DNA of 64,000 bases from Shigella phage sb2, in the sequence record PQ666540; one strand, 5' to 3'. A program made the translations under genes and the position numbers. Positions 34,948-35,385 of the stretch are shown here, one piece after another; the first letter of the stretch is position 1, and every line of letters starts with the position of its first letter. The notes beneath the pieces are model-generated. The model saw only the letters and a list, made by a program, of their open reading frames with translations, made no database searches and was not told the DNA's origin.

Positions 34948-34981
34948 GTGTTTCCTTTAAATGTAAATATTTTTACCGTAG

Positions 34982-34989
34982 TATTTATA
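34982..34989 (-). promoter_or_regulatory. late promoter TATAAATA for the internal protein gene
   Basis: Minus-strand TATAAATA ~30 nt upstream of the ip ATG, embedded in the conserved WYKYYGK-coding tail of denV. Confidence 0.55.
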
Positions 34990-35052
34990 CCAGTGTGGCT
35001 TCATTAAAATTTTTTCATCGAGTCGTTGTTTGGTCAATTTAATATCTGATTT

Positions 35053-35385
35053 TCATGGATTATAATAATTTTTACATTCTGCTGGAATATAGCTGATGTC
35101 AGGAACTTCAGTATCTTTTATACTGAACCCACGTTTTAAGCATTCCGTTATAATGTCTGATTGACGCTTTCGCAAAAATTCTAACTTATCATAAAAGAAC
35201 GTAACATGACCAGAGCCTAAAATAAACTCGGAAGATATTTTAAAATCTTTAACCCGCTTACCATTTGCCACATGTTTACGAACTATACCAAAAACACGCG
35301 GCAGTTCACGGTATTCTGCGATTAAATGTTGATCAGCAAGTTCAGATACTAAAGTCAAATTAATACGAGTCATTTTATCACTCAA
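35053..35385 (-). CDS. denV: endonuclease V homolog, ORF ends prematurely at in-frame TGA
   Basis: [29 protein letters not shown]...[17 protein letters not shown] matches T4 EndoV; stops at codon 111 (T4 protein is 138 aa); conserved tail continues in frame to ~34957. Confidence 0.75.

Follow-up and report, generated by a model that had tools for sequence, protein, structure and literature searches.

By its sequence, the window (the whole 64,000-nucleotide stretch analyzed here) comes from a pSs-1-like Tequatrovirus, a relative of T4. All of the genes under discussion are on the minus strand. Gene e, for a T4-type lysozyme, is intact at 35433-35927. Downstream of it, the frame of denV (T4 endonuclease V, or pyrimidine-dimer DNA glycosylase) occupies 34957-35373, with 138 codons and a TAA, and is broken at codon 107. 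Downstream of denV comes a gene for a 157-residue, IpIV-like internal virion protein (34474-34947), with a leader beginning MKTYQEFI, which matches PF24183/DUF7412 with E=5e-95 and is annotated as ipIV or internal virion protein in relatives including T2. The denV frame, recognized from its translation, a structural match and the annotation of relatives, starts at ATG 35373-35371 and ends at TAA 34959-34957. When Cys is put at the stop, the conceptual 138-residue protein aligns without a gap to residues 1-137 of PDB 2END_A (E=1.4e-65), with the stop opposite His107 of T4. In a search with the region, 528 phage records matched, at identities of up to 97.5%; the relatives' records name the gene endonuclease V. 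A preliminary description of this DNA had reported a denV homolog with an in-frame TGA and, beyond it, the RLDEKI...WYKYYGK tail of the T4 C-terminus; translation and the 2END alignment bear out both, and the tail is indeed in frame. Its count of 110 codons before the stop does not hold, as there are 106 sense codons from the homologous ATG at 35373. The longer count starts at a TTG (35385-35383) made by a window-specific C>A at 35384, where relatives have TGG; this one change both created the TTG of the listed 110-residue open reading frame and hit the denV Shine-Dalgarno sequence.

The stop itself is an opal codon, TGA, at codon 107 (35053-35055, minus strand), a single C>A on the coding strand that reads on the plus strand as G>T at 35053. 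Alignment to related denV genes gave a uniform answer: all 8 of the intact relatives aligned (sb3, sb4, pSs-1, KNP5, Ec_MI-02, Sfk20, IME339 and phage 107) have TGC (Cys) at this codon. A 71-nt query centered on the stop matched 277 phage records, none identical to the window; only Shigella phage sb1 (PQ666539) shares the TGA, which appears in 0 of the other 275 phage records carrying the stretch. In sb1, denV is annotated as a 321-nt endonuclease V coding sequence with a 106-residue product, ending at the TGA. [quoted passage not shown] Metagenome contigs of IMG/VR and JGI yielded no TGA allele, a weak negative given that the TGC control pattern matched only 2 contigs there, and an exact-protein look-up of the 106- and 110-residue products and of the neighboring internal protein returned no record in the protein collection. 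An origin of the mutated patch from a divergent donor was considered and rejected: besides sb1 and sb4, the best match over 71 nt reaches only 91.5%, and the protein cluster nearest to the window denV, at 93% identity, carries the normal residues. Position 107 is variable across the family (T/S/N/H/C), being His in T4 and Thr or Ser in most homologs. The denV null allele is a new, or at least uncommented, allele of a gene known to be dispensable.

The 106 codons still translated (35056-35373, minus strand) retain Thr2, Arg22, Glu23 and Arg26, all the same as in T4 in the alignment to 2END, together with the Pfam core: the 106-residue product scores 51.2 bits against PF03013 (Pyr_excise; cut-off 23) over residues 1-86, corresponding to profile positions 1-76 of 81. 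In the T4 enzyme, Thr2 and Glu23, with Arg22 and Arg26, form the catalytic N-terminus. The untranslated former C-terminus (34957-35052, minus strand; 31 codons and TAA) holds R117, E120 and K121 of helix 3 and the WYKYY segment. The stop precedes S114, R117, E120, K121, P126 and the aromatic segment W128-Y132, all of which are absent from the product. In a homolog panel of 108 cluster representatives, extending down to ~53% identity, 105 members have K121, and S114, R117, E120, P126 and Y129 show no variation at all. A member of the EndoV family should be a single polypeptide with helix 3 and the C-terminal aromatic segment, and the window denV does not yield one. According to structural and mutagenesis work on the T4 enzyme, both of these elements are needed for dimer binding. 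Because they are lost, the 106-residue product should be inactive as a pyrimidine-dimer glycosylase, and the UV sensitivity predicted for the phage is close to that of T2 or of a T4 v- mutant. Though a member of the EndoV family in its sequence, the gene is best described as a disrupted denV pseudogene.

Damage to denV extends to its ribosome-binding site. The Shine-Dalgarno sequence, GGAGGG in 7 relatives and GGAGAG in sb1, is degraded to TGAGTG (35379-35384, minus strand) by coding-strand G>T changes at 35380 and 35384, both of them specific to the window. Within the protein, D95Y, W100C, D103Y and S114T each produce a residue found in 0 of the 108 homologs. The first 94 codons show only synonymous differences from relatives, and a cluster of 7 G:C>T:A changes lies between 34970 and 35091 (T135N, Q115K, A110D, C107*, D103Y, W100C and D95Y), that is, 7 C>A within 122 nt at the 3' end of the gene, every one non-synonymous or nonsense. 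When the window's private changes are polarized against a unanimous panel of pSs-1, KNP5 and Sfk20, 7 of its 86 private C>A fall in denV, with ~0.6 expected for the whole gene. The denV bin is the sole 500-nt bin with more than 2 private C>A, and the densest cluster, 7 in 130 nt at denV, is followed by a next-best in the window of 3. There is also an order to the 9 G:C>T:A changes: along the plus strand they run as four G>T (34970, 35031, 35045 and 35053) and then five C>A (35067, 35074, 35091, 35380 and 35384), so that the strand switches once, a pattern with a post hoc p of ~0.02-0.04. It could be the footprint of single-stranded DNA damage around a break or an artifact of read orientation. 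Strand coordination of C>A across the whole window was sought and rejected, with 45 runs found and 43.6 expected.

On balance, we think that denV was knocked out by one recent substitution, TGC (Cys107) to TGA. The substitution would end translation after 106 residues; decay would also show in the destruction of the ribosome-binding site and in 4 substitutions to residues unseen in homologs, and the 31-codon tail would still be readable because the nonsense change is young and there has been too little time for decay. Since the Shine-Dalgarno sequence is destroyed and four residues occur in no homolog, denV appears to be decaying rather than freshly hit. As expected of a recent pseudogene, there is a disabling lesion set against intact orthologs at the same locus, accompanied by additional signs of relaxed constraint. 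That the gene is dispensable in nature is clear from T2, which lacks denV at the same locus. The signs of relaxed constraint do have a spectrum and a clustering unusual for neutral decay. The denV cluster is almost pure C>A, a class to which only ~6% of the synonymous changes in essential genes belong. The C>A spectrum, the confinement to the 3' third of the gene and the TGC of sb4 are left unexplained by simple neutral decay. The preliminary description had named a nonsense-inactivated gene, a low-level readthrough product and a sequencing error as its options. These were the right three, but they are not of equal standing: nonsense inactivation ranks first, sequencing error is a live rival, and readthrough enters only as a passive background.

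The rival of most weight, a real if clearly lesser possibility, is that the TGA and the neighboring G:C>T:A changes are consensus errors, arising from damaged template or poor base calls, in a phage that truly has TGC. W100C, D103Y and A110D are seen only in sb1, sb4 and the window, the TGA is seen in no phage record besides sb1 and the window, and all of these genomes apparently stem from one study (PMC11993411). The sb1 and sb4 genomes carry 57 and 46 private C>A per 20 kb and have nonsense codons in essential genes, and the private C>A share of the window is 22% in 20 kb, as against ~5-7% for pSs-1, KNP5 and Sfk20 (whole window). Moreover, the 9 changes around denV are all G:C>T:A with one strand switch, which read orientation could cause. 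Random error, however, cannot give 7 such changes in 122 nt: if uniform, it predicts ~0.03 non-synonymous C>A in this 3' stretch of denV. Nor is the recurrence of the changes easily set down to error, as the same 4 or 5 are found in independently assembled genomes ~3% apart. Over 20 kb, the window and sb1 differ at 3.2% of sites; a synonymous GTT>GTG in denV is common to both, and 28 sites, including 21 transitions, are in a derived state only in this pair. Four of the clustered C>A changes are common to the window, sb1 and sb4, and the stop is common to sb1 only. Phage sb4 has the flanking changes W100C, D103Y and A110D, but its codon 107 is TGC, a combination that needs either a reversion or an error. 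A further point against the artifact is that the denV changes are all missing from sb3, another genome of that study.

The quality of the window as a whole also bears on the matter. Over 49 kb, the window and pSs-1 disagree at 1275 positions. Transitions account for 79% of these mismatches, and among those that fall inside the compared genes, 71% are at codon position 3. Private transitions in essential genes are synonymous in 162 cases and non-synonymous in 10, and private C>A in essential genes (~29 kb) are synonymous in 13 and non-synonymous in 7. The essential replication, head-completion and baseplate genes are all intact, so that no essential gene is broken in the window, which again tells against error at denV. 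The private changes of the window look selection-filtered and the window itself looks clean. The proposal that the whole window is an error-ridden assembly was rejected, since its mutational spectrum, codon-position bias, synonymous to non-synonymous ratios and intact essential reading frames are all natural. We therefore favor a real, decaying denV pseudogene in a local phage lineage, which we regard as the probable case, over an assembly artifact, which we regard as possible but distinctly less so.

The sister genomes present a different picture in their own right. In 20 kb, sb4 (PQ666542) has 13 private nonsense codons and sb1 (PQ666539) has 8. These are mostly GAA>TAA and GGA>TGA, that is, coding-strand G>T, which is the same G:C>T:A class as the denV stop. 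Among the genes hit in these two genomes are lysozyme (split into E_1 and E_2), the gene 1 dNMP kinase and the tail-fiber chaperone; in sb4, ATT replaces the denV start codon. The stops in sb1 and sb4 look like uncorrected G>T consensus errors, with A<->T errors as well in sb4.

That UGA-107 is instead a functional leaky stop, read as Trp to give a useful full-length enzyme, with the gene down-tuned rather than dead, is improbable. Of the stop codons, UGA leaks most in E. coli K-12, where reporter readthrough, set by Trp-tRNA against RF2, is ~2% at 37 C and 4% at 25 C (PMC10570021). The tail remains in frame, and Trp might be tolerated at a position as variable as 107. Factors that could promote readthrough were sought in the form of a suppressor tRNA, an RNA structure and an Rfam match, and none was found. 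The window has 10 phage tRNAs, none with a tca anticodon, and its tRNA-Arg has tct; an opal suppressor encoded by the phage, of the psu type derived from T4 tRNA-Arg, was rejected on these grounds. A SECIS element or a readthrough-stimulating structure was likewise rejected: the fold of the 74 nt from the stop is no more stable than that of shuffled versions (-3.8 kcal/mol, z=+0.62; 144 of 200 shuffles did equally well or better), and Rfam gives no match downstream at E<=1. Also against a functional role, the TGA is not conserved among relatives (277 records with the stretch), the loss of the Shine-Dalgarno sequence lowers expression further, and any readthrough product would retain D95Y, W100C, D103Y and S114T. 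What would be expected, in K-12-type hosts, is a passive background of ~2-4% readthrough by tRNA-Trp, with no sign of its being put to use; it may leave traces of a full-length W107 protein.

The peculiar spectrum and polarity of the cluster can also be put together in a more adventurous way, to which we give little credence. The 9 denV changes might have come from one localized mutation shower, or a few, striking the single strands exposed at a double-strand break, with the patch spread by recombination. Guanines would have been damaged on the two resected 3' tails of a break located between 35053 and 35067, and the order of G>T and then C>A is the polarity expected from guanine damage on two such tails. 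The mutated patch would then have passed among co-circulating lake phages via recombination. If true, this would be a natural case of resection-associated clustered mutagenesis in a T-even phage, inactivating a repair gene. The weakest reading, a recoding of Cys to selenocysteine, draws on the TGC/TGA alignment, which is the classic selenoprotein pattern, and on the Sec machinery that enterobacterial hosts possess, but it is effectively refuted, because position 107 is variable in the family (His in T4, Thr or Ser in most homologs) and Cys107 is neither conserved nor catalytic, and because neither a hairpin nor an Rfam match is present 3' of the UGA, the required site of a bacterial SECIS.

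Returning to recent loss of denV as the preferred reading, the state of the tail deserves separate comment. After the TGA come 31 in-frame sense codons, KSDIKLTKQRLDEKILMKPHWYKYYGKNIYI, and then TAA, so that the preserved frame claimed in the preliminary description is confirmed by translation and by homology to relatives. Only 7 of 96 bases differ between the window tail and that of pSs-1; the tail therefore stays in frame through homology rather than by chance. A single base change of recent date suffices to explain why it is intact, and no protection is needed. The preliminary description had suggested another reason, a late promoter embedded in the segment that codes for WYKYYGK. The motif is real: TATAAATA, the T4 late-promoter consensus, lies inside the W-Y-K-Y codons (34982-34989; read on the minus strand, 34989-34982), and the internal-protein gene starts 34 nt further downstream, with the ATG at 34947. 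This geometry resembles that of the copies of TATAAATA at e, gp53, gp4 and gp9, which stand 24-28 nt before the starts of these genes, and the motif is kept in 9 other genomes with the same gene order, the internal-protein gene being downstream. Its count in the window, 12, shows no excess over the 11.06 expected by chance. At the motif position T4 has TACAAATA, with a TAC codon, and there denV is followed by vs.8 and not by a late head gene. In sb1 the position reads TATAAGTA and the motif is broken; in T2 it is deleted along with the whole of denV, yet the downstream internal-protein gene is kept. Plausibly, TATAAATA is a genuine late promoter for the internal-protein gene, and the last ~45 nt of the tail also hold the probable late promoter and ribosome-binding site of that gene. 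Comparison with the T4 locus (2940-3000) shows that the W-Y-K-Y codons spell TATAAATA only where the internal-protein gene follows denV, and this suggests that the codon choice of denV may be shaped by the embedded promoter. As an account of why the tail was kept, the promoter is not needed and seems doubtful: the motif takes up 8 nt of a 93-nt tail, is broken in sb1 and deleted in T2, and is present in the window at a chance count.

Lesions and variants elsewhere in the window were also noted. The vs gene (valyl-tRNA-synthetase modifier; 30921-31261, minus strand) has a private 7-nt deletion, GATGCAG, near ~31212 at its 5' end, which is absent from all 7 aligned relatives and is unlike an error of base calling; such a lesion in a second accessory gene counts in favor of a real loss of denV. 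From an alternative ATG at 31241, a different frame reads across the deletion and stays open for 106 residues, which may allow the bulk of Vs to be produced behind a new N-terminus. In the gene at 27991-28377 (minus strand; DUF5856, a homolog of pSs1_00118), codon 10 carries a private GGA>TGA at 28350, and the longest remaining open reading frame, 27991-28311 (106 residues), restarts 22 codons downstream. A 1-nt insertion relative to pSs-1 in the nucleotidyltransferase gene (24115-25128) was considered as a lesion and dismissed: the window has the 337-residue long form of KNP5, Sfk20 and Ec_MI-02, pSs-1 annotates 735 nt, and the frameshift is probably carried by pSs-1 rather than by the window. 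Among public records, EndoV calls with a shortened N-terminus were met with, one form of 115 residues starting at Pro25 recoded as Met and another of 121 residues from Met18, labelled Escherichia phage T4. These may be 5' lesions of denV or miscalled starts.

Should the mutation prove real, the classical case of T2 would be joined by a natural denV null allele, and denV, an accessory gene for UV repair, would be one that the T-even phages are losing repeatedly. The predicted phenotype, an approximately twofold gain in UV sensitivity, would matter for phages proposed for therapeutic or environmental use. In annotation, the proper flag for the gene is pseudogene or "disrupted", and not an endonuclease of 106 or 110 residues. 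At the same time, the TGA call merits caution, given the many spurious stop codons in sister genomes of the same study. No literature was retrieved that links denV to escape from defense systems or that documents the T2 denV deletion.

Among known systems, the T4 enzyme (denV; 2END/1VAS; PF03013) is the reference. It is ~75% identical to the window protein and colinear with it over residues 1-137, with the same catalytic N-terminus and the same C-terminal RLDEKI...WYKYYGK in frame; T4 denV is uninterrupted, whereas the window gene is broken at codon 107 and gives a polypeptide of 106 residues. The gene order differs as well, being e-denV-ipIV-like in the window and e-ipIII-ipII-denV-vs.8 in T4. 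Nearer relatives are the pSs-1-type phages (pSs-1, KNP5, IME339, Sfk20, Ec_MI-02 and phage 107), which have denV at the same locus with the same neighbors and are 96-97.5% identical in nucleotide sequence over the region. Unlike the window, they have TGC107, a GGAGGG Shine-Dalgarno sequence and D95, W100, D103, A110 and S114. Phage sb1 resembles the window in its TGA at codon 107 and in W100C, D103Y and A110D, and differs in having a near-normal Shine-Dalgarno sequence, GGAGAG, as well as D95 and TATAAGTA instead of TATAAATA; counted on the alignment, ~4% of denV positions differ between the two. The preliminary description had also called for comparison with denV of T4 and T2. For T4 the gene proved intact and alignable without a gap, but for T2 (AP018813) there was nothing to align, as its locus (4904-4990) consists of lysozyme, ~24 nt of unrelated filler and ipIV, with no denV in between. 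Homology of T2 to the window stops at 34962 and resumes at 35385, the intervening 34963-35384 being replaced by the ~24 nt. T2 is reported to be about twice as UV-sensitive as T4 for want of v-gene function (Streisinger 1956; Harm 1963), and the absence of denV from this locus in T2 fits the difference. The window and T2 are thus alike as T-even phages without endonuclease V at the e-ipIV locus, and unlike in how this has come about: in T2 the entire gene has been cleanly deleted, while in the window the body of the gene is present and carries a point nonsense change.
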